A stretch of DNA of 17,991 bases from Candidatus Coatesbacteria bacterium (GCA_014728225.1 WJLX01000177.1:1-17991); one strand, 5' to 3'; counted from the stretch's first letter, positions 4,953 to 17,390 are shown. The notes: a model not told the origin generated them from the letters alone. Program-made: numbers and translations.

Positions 4953-5150
4953 GGCTTTTATGAGGGCGGGGTCAGTTCCAACGACCGCCCCGGCCGCCTC
5001 CCGAACCGCCGCGACAACCGCTGCCACAGCTTTGGCAGGCCCGCGGGTGGTTATGCTGCGCGGGCCGCCGGTTGTTCTCAAAGACTCGCCGGACGTCGCC
5101 TAGTGCGGCACCTTTTCGCTGTTCTGGCGGTTCTCCGGGGGTACCAGACC

Positions 5151-5294
5151 CTAGCTGTCGAAGAGGGTCGGCAGGGCCCGCTGCAGGGCCCGCTGGTGCC
5201 GGCGCTCGGCCTCGCTGACCTCGATGTCCAGGCTCTGAGCGGCGACGGGCGCTCCAAGGGCCGAGAGAACGAAGATCATTGACAGGCTGCGCAT
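5151..5294 (-). CDS. 47-aa ORF with a Sec-type signal peptide (MRSLSMIFVLSALGAPVAAQS...); below the ORF-track size cutoff
   Basis: Hand translation of the minus strand gives MRSLSMIFVLSALGAPVAAQSLDIEVSEAERRHQRALQRALPTLFDS*. It uses GC-rich codons and is followed by the terminator-like hairpin. No obvious SD. Confidence 0.3.
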   Translation of the reverse strand: MRSLSMIFVLSALGAPVAAQSLDIEVSEAERRHQRALQRALPTLFDS

Positions 5295-5399
5295 GGCGCA
5301 GCTCGTTGTTGGCTTGAGCGAGATCAGCAGCGTGATATGGTGTATATTACCAGTAAGTTGCTGGGAAATTGCGTGGGCTTATGAAAGGGAATCGGCTGG

Positions 5400-6330
5400 C
5401 AGCGGTTCAGTTTTTCTTTCGTTTATTATTTCTCGCAGCTTTCCTAGCATTTATAAAAAGCATTTTATTTTTATCATACTCACTTTTTAGCCATTCAATA
5501 AACGCATCATTATATACTGGACATGGATAGTGTTTAGATATATAGCAGTAAGGTGAATTAATATCTATGTTATAGTATTGTTTTACATATTGTATATCCT
5601 GTTGAGAGATCTGTTGACCTTTATTTATATATTTATTCATTTCCTCTACAACATATCCCATTCTTCGACAATGTGTTTTATCAGATTTTTCTGCTCTAAA
5701 TTCTGGAGCATTTGGATCATTTGTTATTCGAATTGTATCAGATAATTTTGTAACACTAATACTATCATGTGCTTCTGCAGGAGTGTCCATAAATATTTGT
5801 ATTTTATCAAAAAAATCATGCATATGTTCGTCAATTCTTTCGTTAATAAGATTTCTTATGTCGTTAGAATTTGCGATTTCAGATTTTGAACCATGTCGTA
5901 CATATATAGTTCCTTTTCTAAATTCATGCTTAACTTTTTTGTCAGATTTATATTCACCATCCTTTTCAAATAATAATGGGTACTTACTTTTACTGATGTG
6001 TATAGCATTAATAATTCCATCTTTTCTTTCAATGTTTACGTGATCAATGCAGTCATATTGAGTGCCAGTATACTTATATATTTTATCAACAAGAGGGGCT
6101 AAATCAATTTTATAATCTTCATAGTTGCATATCTTTCCGTTATCATCAATATTAAATAACAATACTCCACCGTCTGTATTTGCAAATGCAACGATTTCTT
6201 TTATCAATTTTAATAATAATCGCTTGTTCTTAAGGTTGTAGTGTTCCTTAAACTCAATATACTTCGTTTCTATTGTTGTGGTTCTTGAAACTCTAAGCAA
6301 TTCTGTTTTATCCATTTCTTTTCCTTTTAT
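5400..6330. mobile_element. about 0.93-kb AT-rich compositional island (single-gene insertion); no integrase or obvious flanking direct repeats seen
   Basis: An abrupt GC-to-AT switch sits exactly at the stop codon of the upstream gene (6327). The AT-rich tract ends at the island gene's stop (5407). Confidence 0.5.
5407..6315 (-). CDS. AlbA_2 / Schlafen-box (divergent-AAA) domain protein, AT-rich xenogeneic gene
   Basis: The ORF-track frame 5407..6801 is chimeric. The real start is the ATG at 6315 (MDKTELLRVS...), preceded by AAAGGAAAAG. The N-terminal ETKYIEFKEHYN...IKEIVAFANTDGGVLLFNIDDNGKI is the signature E-x-EFK...AFANT-GG-LL-G(V/I)-D of Pfam AlbA_2/Slfn core. Composition is about 30% GC against about 68% in flanking genes. 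Confidence 0.75.
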   Translation of the reverse strand: MDKTELLRVSRTTTIETKYIEFKEHYNLKNKRLLLKLIKEIVAFANTDGGVLLFNIDDNGKICNYEDYKIDLAPLVDKIYKYTGTQYDCIDHVNIERKDGIINAIHISKSKYPLLFEKDGEYKSDKKVKHEFRKGTIYVRHGSKSEIANSNDIRNLINERIDEHMHDFFDKIQIFMDTPAEAHDSISVTKLSDTIRITNDPNAPEFRAEKSDKTHCRRMGYVVEEMNKYINKGQQISQQDIQYVKQYYNIDINSPYCYISKHYPCPVYNDAFIEWLKSEYDKNKMLFINARKAARNNKRKKN

Positions 6331-6824
6331 CGCTTTGTCGCCAGCCTGCCCCCGGGGCAGGTCTCGCGGTAGGCGCATCTGGGGCAGAAGGTGGGGAAGA
6401 AGATCGTCGTGTGCAGCAGCAGCAGGCCGACGTAGAGCGCAGCGTACCACCAGGCCGCCGTGAACAACCAGTACAGCGGGAACAGCAGGATGGCCACGAC
6501 GAAGGAGATACCGAACGCCGCCGCCCGGTCGTAGGCCTTCTTCGTGTGCGCGGCATGGGGATGAAGCAGTTTGGAGAGCGGATTGGCCAGGTAGACGCCG
6601 TAGATCGCCGGGCAGAAGCGCCCCCGGTAGGGGCAGCCGACACAGCAGCGCGCCTGGGCGACATGGACGCCCAGGAGCAGCGAGAGGTAGATGACGCCCA
6701 GCCACCAGGAGCTGGCGAAGAGCAGCCAGGCGGCGCCGATCAGCGCCGCCAGCGCCGGGAGCAGCAGCAGAACGTAGTACAGCTTCTGCCGGGCGGTCCA
6801 CTGATGGGGTGGGTGGGAGGACAT
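6327..6824 (-). CDS. multi-pass membrane protein with two CxxC-type cysteine clusters (possibly DUF2085-like)
   Basis: 165 aa with 4-5 hydrophobic helices. Cysteine clusters CCVGCPYRGRFCPAIYG and FCPRCAYRETCPGG. GC-rich codon usage. Its stop is 11 nt before the AT-rich gene's start. Confidence 0.65.
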   Translation of the reverse strand: MSSHPPHQWTARQKLYYVLLLLPALAALIGAAWLLFASSWWLGVIYLSLLLGVHVAQARCCVGCPYRGRFCPAIYGVYLANPLSKLLHPHAAHTKKAYDRAAAFGISFVVAILLFPLYWLFTAAWWYAALYVGLLLLHTTIFFPTFCPRCAYRETCPGGRLATKR

Positions 6825-12168: not shown

Positions 12169-14193
12169 TCAGTGAACCAGCGGCGCGGGTTCGGCCAGGC
12201 GCTGGACCTCGGCGGCGGTGATGACGATCCCGCGCTCCCGGTAGGTCTCGAGGTCGAAGTAGTAGGGTTCGAGCAGGCGGTCGAGGAGGCCCCGGGCCCC
12301 GCGGGCGCCCAGCCCCTTGGCGCGGGCCAGGGCGGCCAGGGCGGTCAGGGCCGCGGCGGTGAACTCCAGCTCGACCTCCCGCGAGGCCATCAGCGCCTGA
12401 TGCTGCTTGACCAGGGCGTTTTTCGGCTCGGCGATGACCCGGGCCAGGTCGGTGTCGGTGAGCTCGCCCAGCTCGCAGACGACGGGGAAGCGGCCGACGA
12501 ACTCGGGCAGCAGGCCGAACTCGATCAGGTGGGCCGGGCGCAGGGCGGGCGTGGCGGGTTCTTCCGTGGAAGCGCCGAAGCCCAGGCGGCTGGTGCGTTG
12601 TTCGCGACGACGCAGCTCGTCGAGTCCGCAGAAGGCCCCGCCGCAGATGAACAGCACGTGGCGGGTGTCCAGCGTGGCGAACTTGCGGTGGTAGAACAGG
12701 CTGCCGCTCTCGGGGAACCTGGCCTCCGCGCCCTCGACCAGGGTCAGCAGGGCCTGCTGGACGCCTAGTCCGCCGACGTCGCGGCGCCGCTTGTCCGCCG
12801 AGGCGGCCAGCTTGTCGATCTCGTCGATGTAGATGATGCCGTAGCGCGCCGTCTCGAGATCGCGTCCCGCGGCGGCGTAGAGGTCGTAGAGCAGGTCCTC
12901 GACACTGCGGCCGACGTAACCGGTCTCGGTCAGCGAGGTGGCCTCGCTGATCACCAGGGGGCTCTTGAGCAGCCGGGCCAGACTCTTGACCAAATGTGTC
13001 TTGCCGCAGCCCGTCGGGCCGACGAGGAGGATGTTGGACTTCTCCAGCTCGGTTTCGCCCCGGTAGCGGATGCGGCGCAGGTGGTTGGCCACGGCGACGC
13101 TGACGGCGCGCTTGGCGGCCTCCTGGCCGATGACATGCTGCTCGAGGTGGGCGTAGATCTCCCGGGGGCTGAGTTCGCAGTCCAACTCGGCTTTGACCTG
13201 TTTCCCCTTGCCGTCTCCGCTGTTCTCATCGTCCCCGTTCTCCTCGCGGCAATCCGTTTTGAAGCGTTGGTGGATCTGTTCGAGGGCGTTGCGGTAAGTA
13301 CGCCAGTCCTTGTTGTGCAGATGCTTGGCGGCTTGCCGCAGGTTGTGGTTGAGCTTCATCTGGGCCATGGCGAAGGGCCGCTTGCGCTGCGCCTCGCCGA
13401 AGGCGCAGACCTCGTCATAGGCCTTGTCGCACTGCTCCAGCTCACGCAGCTCGATTTTCAGGCTTGCGCAGTAGCGCTCGATGATGTTGCACAGCCCGGT
13501 CTCGTCGAAGTCGACGTTCTCCGTGCCCAGTTCCAGCAGCTCGGCCAGCCGGTGACGGTACTCGCGACCACCCTTGCTCTGCAGCTTTTCGTGGATCCCC
13601 CGGCAGCGTTCCTCGAGCTTGTGCAGCTTGCGGTAGCGGCGGGCCGGGCGGCGGGAGCGCGTGGTCATCAGCTTGTCCAGGCGCCGGGCGGCCAGGCGGC
13701 TCGTCAACCCCCGACCGCCGACGAGGAGGACGCCCAGCAAGGCCCAGCCGCCGGTGACTAACAGGCTCAAGCTCAGAGCCAACCCGCCGGAGAGGGCGAC
13801 CTCGGCGCCCCACAGCCAGAGGTCGACGCGGACCAGGGCGGCGCCGGGCACCAGCTCCAGCAGGACCAGCAGACCGACAGCGAGGGTCGTCGTCACGGCG
13901 ACGGCCAGCCCCAGATCGGGCCGGACGAGGGCCTCGAGACACCCGGGACGGGGCTGGTACTGCAGGTGTTCGCCGACGACGGCGGGCCGGGCCGCCCGCT
14001 TGAGCTGGCCCGGGAAGCCGAGCTGGAAGGCCCTCAAGCCGCCGTAGATGAGCAGCGCCGTCGGCGGGGTCAGCAGGGCCGCCGCCCAGAGAGCCGCCGC
14101 GGCCGTTCCCAGCCGAAACAGCAACACGCCGACGACGGGGGCCAGCAGGACGGCCAGAACCAGTCCGGCCAGCTTGATCGCCCGGTTGATCAT
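12169..14193 (-). CDS. membrane-anchored ClpX-family AAA+ unfoldase paralog (4-5 N-terminal TM helices replace the zinc-binding domain)
   Basis: The C-terminal ~330 aa align motif-for-motif with ClpX: IYAHLEQHVIGQEAAKRAVSVAV, Walker A GPTGCGKT, pore-1 TETGYVG, Walker B IIYIDEIDK, GVQQALLTLVEG, LFICGGAF, the IGF-loop equivalent RLGFGAS, arginine finger PEFVGRFPV, sensor-II GARGARGL. The N-terminus MINRAIKLAGLVLAVLLAPVVGVLLF... forms several hydrophobic helices. The real start ATG at 14193 overlaps the upstream stop (ATGA). The ORF-track 808-aa frame includes a spurious Arg/Pro-rich extension. Confidence 0.85.
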   Translation of the reverse strand: MINRAIKLAGLVLAVLLAPVVGVLLFRLGTAAAALWAAALLTPPTALLIYGGLRAFQLGFPGQLKRAARPAVVGEHLQYQPRPGCLEALVRPDLGLAVAVTTTLAVGLLVLLELVPGAALVRVDLWLWGAEVALSGGLALSLSLLVTGGWALLGVLLVGGRGLTSRLAARRLDKLMTTRSRRPARRYRKLHKLEERCRGIHEKLQSKGGREYRHRLAELLELGTENVDFDETGLCNIIERYCASLKIELRELEQCDKAYDEVCAFGEAQRKRPFAMAQMKLNHNLRQAAKHLHNKDWRTYRNALEQIHQRFKTDCREENGDDENSGDGKGKQVKAELDCELSPREIYAHLEQHVIGQEAAKRAVSVAVANHLRRIRYRGETELEKSNILLVGPTGCGKTHLVKSLARLLKSPLVISEATSLTETGYVGRSVEDLLYDLYAAAGRDLETARYGIIYIDEIDKLAASADKRRRDVGGLGVQQALLTLVEGAEARFPESGSLFYHRKFATLDTRHVLFICGGAFCGLDELRRREQRTSRLGFGASTEEPATPALRPAHLIEFGLLPEFVGRFPVVCELGELTDTDLARVIAEPKNALVKQHQALMASREVELEFTAAALTALAALARAKGLGARGARGLLDRLLEPYYFDLETYRERGIVITAAEVQRLAEPAPLVH

Positions 14194-14675
14194 CGTATCC
14201 CTCCCTCGAGCAGTTTCTCCCGGATCTCCTCGAGCACGATCACGGCCTCGGTACGGCGCCGGGGCAGGCTCTCGAGCACCACGGCGGGCAGTTTGATGTA
14301 GTCGAGGTCGGGGCGGCAGATCAGGCGGACGGTCAGGTTGGGGTGTTCGTCGATGAAGCGGCGCGCCATGGGAGTGCTGATGTTCCAAGCGATGGGGAAG
14401 GTGTTCTTGTCGTCGAAGCGCAGGCGCAGCAGCCGGTCTTCGGCGAAGGGCACGTAGGCGCAGAGGACGACGGGACGGTTGTTCAGGCGGTACTCGTAGG
14501 AACGGGCATGCTCGGGACCGTAGTTGTAGACCTCGACGGCGGCGGTCTCGAGGTCCCGGGGATCGTTGAACCAGCGGGCGGGATCGACCATGCACCAGGG
14601 CCCGCCCCGGTCGGCCCGGACGACGAACAGGCGGGTCAGCAGCTTCTCGGCCTGGAGTTTGATCCGGTGTTTCAT
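14190..14675 (-). CDS. hypothetical soluble protein (161 aa), translationally coupled to the ClpX-like gene
   Basis: ATG at 14675 with an AAGGAGG SD 7 nt upstream (MKHRIKLQAEKLL...). No recognisable domain. Its stop overlaps the ClpX-like start. Confidence 0.6.
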   Translation of the reverse strand: MKHRIKLQAEKLLTRLFVVRADRGGPWCMVDPARWFNDPRDLETAAVEVYNYGPEHARSYEYRLNNRPVVLCAYVPFAEDRLLRLRFDDKNTFPIAWNISTPMARRFIDEHPNLTVRLICRPDLDYIKLPAVVLESLPRRRTEAVIVLEEIREKLLEGGIR

Positions 14676-14752
14676 TGATTGCCTCCTTGAAGCGCTTGGC
14701 AATGGTGGGAGATTGGCTGAGGGCGGTGTCGCTCAGGCGGGATGTCGGCGTT

Positions 14753-16030
14753 CTATCGCAGCCGCACGCAGTCGCCGAGGGGCGGGGTCTCGGTGTTGCC
14801 GTCGGCGGTCAGGCACCACAGCACGGGTAGGCCGTCGTACCCCTCGGGCCAGGGGGCGTAGCCGTCTGTCAGTACGACGTTGTACCGGCCCCAGTGGGAG
14901 TTCTCGCTCACCCAGTCGAAGGCGTTCTGGAAGTCCGTTCCGCCCCAACCCAGTATTCGCAGCCCCATCCAGTCGCCCCGCCGGTAGTGGTGGATGTACT
15001 CGCCGTTGATGCGCTCGACCATGTGGTCGAAGATCAGCAGGCGGATGCGCAGCAGGTGGGAGATGGCCTCCAACTCGGAGAAGAACTGCTGCAGGTGGGT
15101 AGGCTTGATGCTGCCGGAGACATCAACCATGACCAGGATGTCGGCCTTGGCGTGACGGCTGTGCCCCTTGACGCCGAAGACGGGCCGGCGACGGTTGGGC
15201 CGGGCGTAGGTCGGACGGCTACCGCCCAGATAACGGCCGATCAGGTTGCGCAGCCGCTGACGCCAGTCGATCAACGGCACGTCCAGGGCCTCGAGCAGGC
15301 GGGGCAGGTCGCTGGGGCCTTTTCCACCGGATTGCGAGTAGGCGCTCTTGAGTACCCGGCGCAGGATGATCCGGTAACTCTCCTCGTCGGGAGCATCCAT
15401 CCAGGCGCCGTGGTCCATAAGACGCTCCAGCAGGGCCTGGGGGTCGCCCTCGAACCATAGGGGGATGGTGCCGCGATCCGTGTGCAGATGCAGCTTCTCG
15501 CCTCGCAGCATGGCCTCCAGGCTCCGGGCCAGCTCCTCGTAGCTCATCCGCGGCAGCCAGCGGACCAACTGCTCCAGCGCTGTGCGGCAGGAGAGCTCCT
15601 CGGGCAGGAAGACGCTGGCCTTTTCCAGAAACTCGTCACCGGCGATACCCTCGAGGTGGGGACAGCTTTTGTGGCCGTGGATGACGGCGTCCATGGCCCA
15701 ATTGAGGGCGGGGTGGTTGCGGCAGGCTTCCTTGCCGAACTGCCTGGCGCGCAGGGGGTGCAGGTGCAGGATGTGCTCCAGCTCGTGGCGTAGGATGGTC
15801 TGAGTCTGACCAACGCTCAGCCTGTCGACGAACTTCGGGTTGTAGGCCAGCACGGGACGGCCGTCGCGGTCGATCCAGACCGCCATGGTCTTGACCCGCT
15901 TCTCCCGGGGGCCGACGGTGGTGAAGTAGTTGATCAGATAGCCGTAGAAGGGCGTTTCGTTGATCAGGCGGCAACGGGCCAGGTTGATCTTCTCCAGGGC
16001 ACTCAAGCGGGTCTCAGTCGACGAGGACAC
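14753..16030 (-). CDS. putative metallopeptidase (HExxH) plus VWA-like domain protein (DUF2201-type MoxR partner)
   Basis: HELEH zinc-binding motif (ILRHELEHILHLHP) in the N-domain. VWA MIDAS DxSxS (ILVMVDVSGSI) in the C-domain. The start is ambiguous: GTG 16030 (overlaps the ATPase gene by 17 nt), TTG 16006, or the ORF-track TTG 16063. Confidence 0.8.
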   Translation of the reverse strand: MSSSTETRLSALEKINLARCRLINETPFYGYLINYFTTVGPREKRVKTMAVWIDRDGRPVLAYNPKFVDRLSVGQTQTILRHELEHILHLHPLRARQFGKEACRNHPALNWAMDAVIHGHKSCPHLEGIAGDEFLEKASVFLPEELSCRTALEQLVRWLPRMSYEELARSLEAMLRGEKLHLHTDRGTIPLWFEGDPQALLERLMDHGAWMDAPDEESYRIILRRVLKSAYSQSGGKGPSDLPRLLEALDVPLIDWRQRLRNLIGRYLGGSRPTYARPNRRRPVFGVKGHSRHAKADILVMVDVSGSIKPTHLQQFFSELEAISHLLRIRLLIFDHMVERINGEYIHHYRRGDWMGLRILGWGGTDFQNAFDWVSENSHWGRYNVVLTDGYAPWPEGYDGLPVLWCLTADGNTETPPLGDCVRLR

Positions 16031-17390
16031 CCTCCACCTCCCCGTGGCTGTGTTCGCTCTCAACGGGACGGGCGGTGCCCCTGGTCAGCTCGCCGAAGGC
16101 CGTGCAGAGATCGGTGCGTGGGGCCATCAACTGCAGCCAGGCGTCGGGGTCGTTCTTCTCCGGGGCCACCACCTCGAGGACCTGCTTCAGCGCCGCCGGT
16201 CCACCGAGAACAGCCACGCTGTAGCCCTCGCAGATGTCGAGTTCCCGGGCCCCCACCCGGGCGATCACCCGGGCCAGTCCCAGGACCAGGTCCCAGTTGG
16301 CGTTGTCGGCCTGGGGACCGAGAAGCAGGTCCAGCAGGTCCAGCACGTTGTGGCGGCGTCCGGGATGCTTGATCTCCTCGATCTTGCCCAGCAGGCTCCA
16401 AACGAGCTGGCGTACACCGTTGCGGCTGAGGTCCAACACGTCGTTCTTCCAGTACTCGCGGTCGTTGTCCAGGATCAGCGCCAGAGAGATCAGCGGTTCG
16501 GTGTTGAGGAAATCGTCCACCAGGGGCAGGCCGATCAGGCCGCCCAGAACGCGGCGATGGGCCTCCTCGCCGTAGATCCCCAGCCTTCGGGACGCGGTGT
16601 TGACCCGCCCGACGGCTTCCCAGCTCCGCGGCGAGGGGTAGACCTTGACCCCTTTATCGACGGGCTGGGCCTTCTCGTCCTTGGCGTCCAGTTGCAGCGG
16701 CCGGCCGAGGAACATCGAGCCCAGATCGCGCTCGGAAGTGTAGGTCAGGATCTTGCCGATCTCGTCACCGTCGAGCTTCGGCAACCGCCCCATGAAGGCG
16801 GCCCATTCGATCATGTACTCATCGTCGACCTCGACCTCGAGGAAGCAGAAGCGGTCGAGGAAGGCGGAGTCCAGCAGGGCGTTCTGGGAGTAGGCCGAGC
16901 TGCGTGGCGGGTTGCTGGCCGCCACCACGTCCCAGCCCGCCGGCAGGCGATAGCGACCGCAGCGGTGGTAGACGGCGCCATCTGTGTCGCGCTGATGCTC
17001 GATGAGTTGGAAGACGGCCTGCTGGACGTCGAACTGGGCGCGGAACAACTCGTCGAGGAACAGCAGCCCCCGCTCGCCGTGGACCTTCTCCTGGGGCAGG
17101 ATCGTCGGCGGGGCGAAATTGGTCAGCTTGCCGTCGGCGGCGTCATCCAGGTAGGGCAGGCCGGTGAAGTCGGCGGCTTCATGGAGCGAGCCGCGCAGGT
17201 TGATGTAGTCCGTCGGGGCCTCGTCGCCCCACAGCTCGCGCCGCAGGCGGGCGAACTCGCTGGATTTTTCGTAGCACAGGGCGCGGACCAGGGCGCTCTT
17301 GCCGATCCCGCGCTCGCCGACGAGCAGCGGGGTAACATCGGCGGCCAGGCTGAGGGTCAGCTCCTGGGCGATCTGCAGTAAACCGGGCAT
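16014..17390 (-). CDS. MoxR-like AAA+ ATPase (AAA_5 type) with a long C-terminal extension
   Basis: Walker A LLVGERGIGKSAL, Walker B LLFLDELFRA, sensor-1 VVAASNP. ATG at 17390 with an AAGGAGG SD 4 nt upstream. It is the first gene of the cluster. Confidence 0.85.
   Translation of the reverse strand: MPGLLQIAQELTLSLAADVTPLLVGERGIGKSALVRALCYEKSSEFARLRRELWGDEAPTDYINLRGSLHEAADFTGLPYLDDAADGKLTNFAPPTILPQEKVHGERGLLFLDELFRAQFDVQQAVFQLIEHQRDTDGAVYHRCGRYRLPAGWDVVAASNPPRSSAYSQNALLDSAFLDRFCFLEVEVDDEYMIEWAAFMGRLPKLDGDEIGKILTYTSERDLGSMFLGRPLQLDAKDEKAQPVDKGVKVYPSPRSWEAVGRVNTASRRLGIYGEEAHRRVLGGLIGLPLVDDFLNTEPLISLALILDNDREYWKNDVLDLSRNGVRQLVWSLLGKIEEIKHPGRRHNVLDLLDLLLGPQADNANWDLVLGLARVIARVGARELDICEGYSVAVLGGPAALKQVLEVVAPEKNDPDAWLQLMAPRTDLCTAFGELTRGTARPVESEHSHGEVEGVLVD

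Follow-up and report, generated by a model that had tools for sequence, protein, structure and literature searches.

An acquired AT-rich cassette carrying a Schlafen-family nuclease gene in a Candidatus Coatesbacteria genome

Introduction

A contig of 17,991 bp from a Candidatus Coatesbacteria bacterium (GCA_014728225.1, WJLX01000177.1), hereafter called the window, carries a gene of 30% GC, under purifying selection, inside an array of core genes with 66% GC. This unusual natural history raises the question of what the gene encodes, how it came to be located there and what it may do for its host. The original prediction, made from the DNA sequence, had described the locus as a single-gene AT-rich island encoding an AlbA_2/Schlafen-box protein. 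It is now close to certain that the segment is an acquired gene of the Schlafen nuclease family, with the defence function and the tRNA substrate being less so. We propose, with a probability of about 0.6, that its product is an antiviral nuclease of the prokaryotic Schlafen (pSlfn) type, encoded by one gene and acting through the mechanism outlined below.

The AT-rich cassette and its boundaries

The base composition of the window changes sharply around this gene. Each 300-bp interval within 5401-6300 has a GC content of 0.28-0.29, compared to 0.61-0.72 on both sides, and a cumulative GC walk places the low-GC stretch at 5332-6330. Alignment with two cassette-free relatives (L011 and L025), in which the homology ends at window position 6348 and restarts at ~5377, delimits a cassette of 968 bp with a GC content of 0.300 (Table 1). 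Against 303 other 968-bp segments of the contig (mean 0.665, standard deviation 0.025, minimum 0.599), this value corresponds to a z of -14.5. Read in the direction of the genes, the left cassette end lies inside the upstream membrane-protein gene, the last 6 codons and the stop codon of which are cassette-derived, and the right end lies ~30 nt beyond the stop codon of the cassette gene. In the cassette-free relatives the membrane protein has other, longer C-terminal tails. The cassette contains one gene only, and the GC content at third codon positions (GC3) of this gene is 0.205, versus 0.86-0.94 in five neighbouring genes. Codons ending in A or T make up 79% of the gene versus 12% in host genes, 53% of its codons are rare in host genes (<5 per 1000), and the ATA codon is found 49.7 times per 1000 codons versus 0.5 in the host genes. 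The predicted drop and recovery of GC around the gene, as well as a codon usage foreign to the host, are thus borne out.

The same junctions are present in four assemblies (an ENA contig, two Logan contigs and the GenBank contig of the metagenome-assembled genome), and a homologous junction is found in a second lineage, represented by the contig L004. A chimeric assembly can be ruled out because the junctions recur in independent assemblies. No tRNA gene is located within the window, and no significant direct or inverted repeats flank the cassette; the sole flank-related repeat, an 11-nt inverted one at 5016/5397, is at the level of chance. A Pfam scan of the neighbouring window proteins revealed no integrase-like or mobile-element family. 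The hallmarks of a classical genomic island or integrative element (integrase or recombinase, tRNA target, direct repeats) are therefore missing at this site, in agreement with the original prediction that neither an integrase nor repeats mark the insertion. Since empty sites exist in related genomes, as described later, the gene has been acquired, and it is close to certain that the cassette is a horizontally acquired single-gene insertion at the 3' end of a native membrane-protein gene.

A Schlafen nuclease domain with its catalytic residues

The cassette gene, on the minus strand, extends from an ATG at 6315-6313 to a TGA at 5409-5407 and encodes 302 residues. Its GenBank entry is named "hypothetical protein GF399_12690" (MBD3401171.1). 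PF04326 (SLFN_AlbA_2) matches residues 16-148 with an E value of 1.1e-14 and 55.3 bits (cut-off 25.3), covering positions 1-117 of the 118 in the profile. Failure of profile searches to recover this family had been set beforehand as a refutation of the AlbA_2/Slfn identity, which therefore stands, and the motif quoted in support of it, EFK...AFANTDGGVLLFNIDD, is present in the translation. In an AlphaFold model for which 17 homologues were used, the pLDDT is ~90 across residues 1-160, and Foldseek matches of the model include DIP2311 (3LMM), SLFN12, the tRNase domain of SAMD9, and SLFN5, 11, 13 and 14. The Schlafen fold of pSlfn nucleases is thus present.

When the family profile is aligned to PDB sequences, residues 16-66 fall on the active C-lobe of SLFN13 ("SESASIEFKQ...AFANTQGGYLLFGVDDESK"), with E16, E21, K23 and D58 of the window protein aligned with E205, E210, K212 and D248 of SLFN13. 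Of 110 family members, 99% have E16 and 97% have K23. Position 21 is E or D in all 17 sequences of alignment A1, and D58 is kept in 15 of these 17. Both the Ex4(E/D)xK motif and the downstream acid that characterize pSlfn proteins are found here. Because the four residues match catalytic residues of SLFN13, and E16, E21 and K23 those of CbCash, and because they are conserved in the family, the Schlafen-type active site of the window protein is, as judged from its sequence, complete.

A conserved linker and a winged helix-turn-helix domain

The nuclease domain is followed by a long helix and a linker modelled with low confidence (Table 1). It is noted that this linker contains a motif, R-I-T-N-D-P-N-A-P (aa 196-204, nt 5704-5730), that is strikingly conserved in the family. 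T198, D200, P201 and A203 show little or no variation in A1, and A203 is kept in 91% of alignment A2. The remaining C-terminal region adopts a winged helix-turn-helix (HTH) fold resembling the DNA-binding domains of MerR, GlnR, TnrA, RacA and Xis, and constitutes a putative sensor or nucleic-acid-binding module. The C-terminal ~150 residues, which had been left unassigned in the original prediction, can thus be attributed to the conserved linker and the MerR/Xis-like winged HTH. As in pSlfn proteins, a nuclease is fused to an accessory domain, in this case a conserved one of ~90 residues.

Start codon and expression signals

GenBank and the gene callers place the start at an earlier ATG, giving 323 residues and a 52-nt overlap with the membrane-protein gene (window 6253-6378, minus strand). 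The ATG at 6315 fits better as the start, because of the upstream AAGGA, the position of the GC break and the N-termini of the homologues. It leaves exactly 11 nt between the stop codon of the membrane-protein gene (TAA, 6329-6327) and the ATG, in accordance with the 11-bp gap predicted. The spacer reads AAGGAAAAGAA, with the Shine-Dalgarno-like AAGGA 6 nt ahead of the ATG, and is identical in L004 except that the membrane-protein gene there ends with TGA instead of TAA. A spacer of this length is too short to hold a separate promoter for the cassette gene, and the 11-nt spacing fits co-transcription with the upstream gene. The membrane-protein gene is thus the probable source of transcription for the cassette gene, being context and not cargo. 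No convincing terminator was found 3' of the cassette gene, either in a scan of the coding strand or by RNA folding, which was no better than for shuffled sequences.

Family distribution and genomic contexts

Full-length homologues of 300-320 residues, with 28-35% identity, are found in, for example, Ruegeria and Yoonia. An exhaustive profile search yielded at least 336 clusters at E ≤ 1e-30, nearly all of which span both domains, and the two-domain family is therefore widespread. The profile PDC-S19 of PADLOC (PDLC04952) is matched by 94 of the 110 family members through the C-terminal domain, the matches being partial and weak (profile ~192-324 of 328, best 6e-12), and PDC-S50 is matched by 64 of the 110 through the N-terminal domain. 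These PDC entries belong to a set of 145 candidates for phage defence, which were detected inside BREX, DISARM and type I restriction-modification systems (10.1101/2024.01.29.577857).

Two family loci lie in defence-related surroundings. One (L027) adjoins a gene for a type IV Mrr-like restriction enzyme (E 5e-104), and the other (L028) is near a class I prokaryotic Argonaute (pAgo) gene (E 7e-188), a viperin-like (pVip-like) radical-SAM gene and an LmuB/SbcC-like gene. It should be mentioned that the second metagenome scan gave three full-length family loci among 80, so that the context statistics are thin. Among the genes of the window itself no known defence gene was found, proximity to such genes being a typical though not obligatory feature of pSlfn genes, and the locus is not a defence island; its link to defence comes from the family and from the literature (PMC13056530, PMC13462974). 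The association with defence islands suggested originally thus applies to the family and not to this locus. A scan of viral contigs returned generic matches to the AlbA_2 N-terminal domain and no full-length family member. Similarly, phage and plasmid collections searched by tblastn with the window protein, and plasmids searched with its Ruegeria homologue, yielded no match and hence no vector.

All the family genes examined are richer in AT than their flanks. The gene is 7-22 GC points lower in seven loci (0.41-0.50 versus 0.52-0.65 in L012, L013, L021, L024 and L027-L029) and 36-37 points lower in the Coatesbacteria copies (0.27-0.29 versus 0.64-0.66). This shift persists even at a syntenic position next to lepA.

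Locus history in related genomes

A tree was obtained from 1,354 flank positions of the window, the contigs L010, L004 and L011, and the outgroups L005 and L006. The window and L010 form a pair 1.8% apart, L004 and L011 form a second pair 2.1% apart, the two pairs differ by 9-10%, and L005/L006 are 28% away. Taking the window with its intact gene as the reference, L010 (99.4% identical over 4 kb of the upstream flank) has a pseudogene: a deletion between two copies of AAAAGAAAT has removed the initial ~40 codons and with them the catalytic motif, and the copy also contains two frameshifts as well as stops in frame. L004, in the second lineage, has an identical left junction and an intact allele with 69% protein identity and a GC content of 0.27. 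L025, which is ~98% identical to L004 in both flanks, has no cassette, as is also the case for L011 up to the end of its contig. In the outgroups L005 and L006, with membrane proteins 73-74% identical, only ~50-60 bp separate the two native genes. The gene is thus absent in L005, L006, L025 and, to its contig end, L011; universal presence at this locus, named in advance as grounds for an ancient and not an acquired gene, was not found.

At the cassette site, L025 contains an unrelated segment of 653 bp and 52% GC (L025:6478-7130), also present at the ends of L011 and L026, in which no convincing open reading frame (ORF) and no Rfam match were detected. The site thus acts like a small hotspot that can hold different contents.

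Comparison of the window and L004 alleles over 298 codons gives a non-synonymous divergence (dN) of 0.166, a synonymous divergence (dS) of 0.78 and a dN/dS of 0.21 (81 synonymous changes at 166 sites, 108 non-synonymous changes at 727 sites), with ~0.2 for each domain. These are simple Nei-Gojobori estimates, which are rough for sequences with GC3 of 20% versus 90%. The dS of the adjacent membrane-protein gene is 0.21 in the same comparison. Because it is under purifying selection, the cassette gene is considered functional, and its loss or disruption between near-identical strains shows it to be dispensable. The polymorphism of intact, broken and absent states in near-identical strains suggests population dynamics like those of defence genes, and provides a natural experiment in which one cassette is intact, deleted in its catalytic motif, or absent in near-identical genomes.

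The C-terminal domain (aa 215-298) is more diverged between the window and L004 than the nuclease domain, with an identity of 58% versus 75% and a dS of 1.30 versus 0.66. From the sequences this looks like mosaic ancestry rather than positive selection, though it echoes the faster-evolving sensor domains reported for pSlfn5 (PMC13056530). The L010 copy (L010:4017-4812) is also mosaic: its 5' ~500 nt are 84-88% identical to the window, the 300 nt at its 3' end diverge by 1.7%, and no difference from the window is seen in the neighbouring 3' end of the membrane-protein gene or in the downstream flank. With L004 used to polarise the changes, 41 are assigned to the branch of L010 and 19 to that of the window. 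The L010 mosaic could reflect recombination with a diverged allele or the consensus of a strain mixture. Together with the doubled dS of the L004 C-terminal domain it favours some recombination at the locus and is taken as a lead, bearing in mind that these signs of mosaicism come from short metagenomic contigs and from Nei-Gojobori estimates at extreme base composition.

The gene had been described as recently acquired. Acquisition is supported by the empty sites, and "recent" is too strong, because the same junction is found in lineages with 9-10% flank divergence whose alleles are 69% identical in protein. The acquisition would therefore seem older, unless the cassette was exchanged between the lineages by recombination through the conserved flanks.

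Comparison with known Schlafen systems

The role of prokaryotic Schlafens as antiphage tRNases was established in 2025-26. A set of 5,930 pSlfn proteins has been defined by the Ex4(E/D)xK motif, with architectures that already include fusions to HTH and to "unannotated" domains, and 69.6% of the genes are near known defence genes (PMC13056530). Two of them, RorSlfn5 and EcoSlfn7, protect E. coli from phage (PMC13056530), RorSlfn5 by tRNA cleavage (PMC13056530, Perez Taboada et al., Nat Microbiol 2026). The window protein resembles these in having a single PF04326 domain, the Ex4(E/D)xK motif, and a nuclease and a presumed sensory domain in one polypeptide encoded by a single gene. It differs in its accessory domain, a small MerR/Xis-like winged HTH invisible to Pfam, whereas RorSlfn5 and EcoSlfn7 have Ig-like or DUF262 domains. 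It differs also in standing outside a defence island and in being known from sequence.

The second system to be compared is Cash, which cleaves tRNA loops (PMC13462974, Weickert et al., Nat Commun 2026). CbCash (PDB 9ylu) has a similar layout of ~300 residues with an N-terminal single lobe and a C-terminal regulatory domain. Its residues E17, D22 and K24, equivalent to E16, E21 and K23 here, hold Mg2+ and the scissile phosphate of the tRNA loop, and their mutation abolishes cleavage (PMC13462974). Single lobes of CbCash must oligomerise to form the active site (PMC13462974). In contrast to the window protein, with its winged HTH and no CRISPR context, Cash has a Csx15 Rossmann-like cA4 sensor and is located in type III CRISPR loci. 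The sequence similarity between the two is marginal (E 0.25, confined to the N-terminal 47 residues).

SLFN11/12/13/14 and the SAMD9 tRNase domain share the same fold and the same catalytic acids, those of the active C-lobe. However, a eukaryotic Schlafen core is a pseudo-dimer of two lobes that is followed by a helicase or another large C-terminal module, while the window protein consists of one lobe and a ~90-residue winged HTH. The horseshoe of two lobes is not found here: there is one PF04326 stretch, the model has one AlbA_2-like domain, and the PDB alignments fall on the C-lobe only. DIP2311-type proteins (PDB 3LMM), the commonest bacterial AlbA_2 architecture (AlbA_2-HATPase_c_4-HTH), are ~500 residues long with a histidine-kinase-like ATPase between the modules, which the window protein does not have. 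PDC-S19 and PDC-S50 are likewise single-gene candidates, of ~330 residues (Payne et al. 2024, 10.1101/2024.01.29.577857). As far as sequence and modelled fold can tell, the window protein has the defining features of pSlfn proteins and is not a Cash protein, not of the eukaryotic type and not a demonstrable member of PDC-S19.

It is therefore not a new kind of system; it is a well-delimited example of pSlfn. It would extend the pSlfn defence nucleases to an uncultured candidate phylum, the Coatesbacteria, and it defines a compact architecture of ~300 residues, in which a Schlafen domain is followed by the conserved linker motif and a MerR/Xis-like winged HTH, and which is shared by at least 336 clusters. 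The locus is a useful case for the turnover of immune genes and for the persistence of foreign composition, and the cultivable homologues from Ruegeria and Yoonia offer a route to experiments.

Proposed mechanism

Considering the homology with RorSlfn5, EcoSlfn7 and Cash, we propose an expression route, a trigger, an RNA substrate and a defence phenotype for the window protein. Read-through from the membrane-protein gene would transcribe the cassette gene, and translation would be poor because more than half of the codons are rare in the host. The protein would stay latent until its C-terminal module senses a cue of infection, either a foreign nucleic acid or a protein. Oligomerisation would then join the single-lobe nuclease domains and switch the nuclease on. 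Loops of tRNA (or of another RNA) would be cut, translation would stop, and phage replication would be aborted or slowed. Toxicity, RNase activity and abortive infection are accordingly expected properties that we infer for the window protein.

Alternative explanations

Several observations weigh against a defence nuclease and should be considered together. The winged HTH could equally fit a DNA-binding regulator. The catalytic residues are also kept in Schlafens with debated RNase activity, such as SLFN5. The window protein has no match in PADLOC or NCBIfam (none at E ≤ 0.1 for PDC-S19 of PADLOC), none of four locus proteins matches PADLOC, and the Pfam families of the window are of the housekeeping type only. 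PDC-S19 is itself a predicted candidate only (10.1101/2024.01.29.577857). Furthermore, in Ruegeria, Yoonia and a third Rhodobacterales lineage (L012, L013, L021-L023) the homologue is always convergent with lepA, in housekeeping surroundings and without defence neighbours, and this position looks more like that of a resident gene than of island cargo. The protein might accordingly be a nucleic-acid-binding regulator or housekeeping factor, with its AT-richness merely reflecting foreign origin. The lepA synteny and the DNA-binding domains that the C-terminal domain resembles would agree with such a role, as would the crystallisation of the SAMD9 AlbA_2 domain as a DNA-binding domain (7ksp), the names given to homologues in GenBank ("putative DNA-binding protein", "RNA-binding domain-containing protein") and the 30% of pSlfn genes that are not near defence genes (PMC13056530). 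We nevertheless consider a regulator rather unlikely. A pure binder needs no full catalytic set, yet E16 and K23 are almost always kept among the 110 family members and position 21 is always acidic in A1. The gene is dispensable, as its inactivation or loss in near-identical strains shows, it has no conserved neighbour that could be its partner or target, and the PDC-S19 matches of most family members and the two loci beside pAgo or a type IV restriction enzyme also speak for defence.

Another possibility is the toxin of a toxin-antitoxin or addiction module, kept by the difficulty of losing it and not by any defence it gives. RNases of the Schlafen type could be toxic, the gene is AT-rich and patchily distributed, and, in Ruegeria only, a gene resembling Phd/YefM-family antitoxins is located ~300 bp upstream of the homologue. 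The upstream neighbours differ among the Rhodobacterales loci, however; the corresponding gene of Yoonia is unrelated and without a Pfam match, and an amidase gene is upstream in the JGI loci. No small partner gene is present in the window, in L004 or in the remaining homologue loci, and where a type II system would have an adjacent conserved antitoxin, the cassette gene has a native membrane-protein gene upstream and a gene remnant downstream. Ready loss and pseudogenisation among near-identical strains also argue against addiction. This reading, very improbable in our view, was rejected for lack of a conserved partner. Least credible of all is that the segment is an artefact of chimeric assembly or the dead remnant of a mobile element, even though the source is a metagenome-assembled genome, the composition is extreme and one related contig has a decayed copy. 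The junctions are identical in four assemblies of the lineage and a homologous one is found in a second lineage, and the reading frame is intact over 302 codons with a dN/dS of 0.21 and with all family-invariant residues kept. As far as the sequences can show, this reading is refuted.

Returning to the pSlfn nuclease, its AT-rich codon usage could be part of the mechanism and more than a trace of transfer. Human SLFN11 is reported to restrict viruses via tRNA cleavage in a codon-usage-dependent manner. In a speculative extension, to which we give little credence, the Coatesbacteria Schlafen would cut tRNAs for A/U-ending codons, and the insertion site would be a small hotspot where alleles are exchanged by recombination. 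All family members examined lie 7-37 GC points below their flanks, and both Coatesbacteria alleles hold a GC3 near 0.2 despite a dS of ~0.8. If this were true, host translation (GC3 ~0.9) would be spared, AT-richer phages and plasmids would be starved, and the synthesis of the protein itself would be shut off, making it a codon-usage-selective, self-limiting bacterial immune nuclease.

Feature coordinates and neighbouring genes

Table 1. Features of the cassette and the adjoining genes, in window coordinates
Feature	Position	Strand	Evidence
Acquired AT-rich cassette, 30% GC	5380..6347	.	homology break with L011/L025, GC z, composition profile
Coding sequence of the 302-aa Schlafen/AlbA_2 and winged-HTH protein	5407..6315	minus	translation; full-length homologues; dN/dS 0.21 vs L004
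N-terminal Schlafen/AlbA_2 nuclease domain, aa 1-150	5866..6315	minus	
Catalytic motif E16-x4-E21-F-K23 (IETKYIEFK), = Ex4(E/D)xK	6247..6270	minus	alignment to SLFN13 'ESASIEFK'
D58, counterpart of the third catalytic acid, in GGxLxFxxDD	6142..6144	minus	profile-to-PDB alignment
Long helix (aa 150-177) and low-confidence linker (aa 172-214)	5674..5865	minus	structure model
C-terminal MerR/RacA/excisionase-like winged HTH, aa 215-302	5410..5673	minus	
11-nt intergenic spacer with ribosome-binding site AAGGA (6326-6322)	6316..6326	minus	sequence
Native 165-aa Cys-rich membrane-protein gene	6327..6824	minus	translation; orthologues with and without cassette; GC3 0.90
47-aa ORF, internally deleted remnant of a ~175-aa native gene	5151..5294	minus	alignment with intact L025, L004 and L006 genes

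The gene order in Coatesbacteria is yebC - ruvC - membrane-protein gene - [cassette] - ~175-aa secreted protein - methyltransferase - DUF8091 - ... - FKBP - ruvA, all on one strand. The parent of the 47-aa remnant is the ~175-aa secreted protein, which has a Cys/Gly-rich tail, and the remnant would mark decay beside the insertion. It holds a 12-nt tandem duplication, GCAGGGCCCGCT x2, at 5171-5194. Farther away, at 12169-17390 on the minus strand, lies a cluster with no evident link to the cassette. Its products are a ClpX/AAA_2-like ATPase that is much extended at the N-terminus, a 170-aa protein, a metallopeptidase (DUF2201) that also has a VWA domain, and an AAA_5 ATPase of the MoxR type.

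The membrane protein is hydrophobic, with conserved Cys motifs (CCVGCP, FCP, FCPRC and CPGG), and cannot be placed in a family of Pfam or NCBIfam. No relatives were found when JGI metagenome contigs were scanned with this protein. Its orthologues are found in Coatesbacteria, and homologues with 40-48% identity are present in Anaerolineae.

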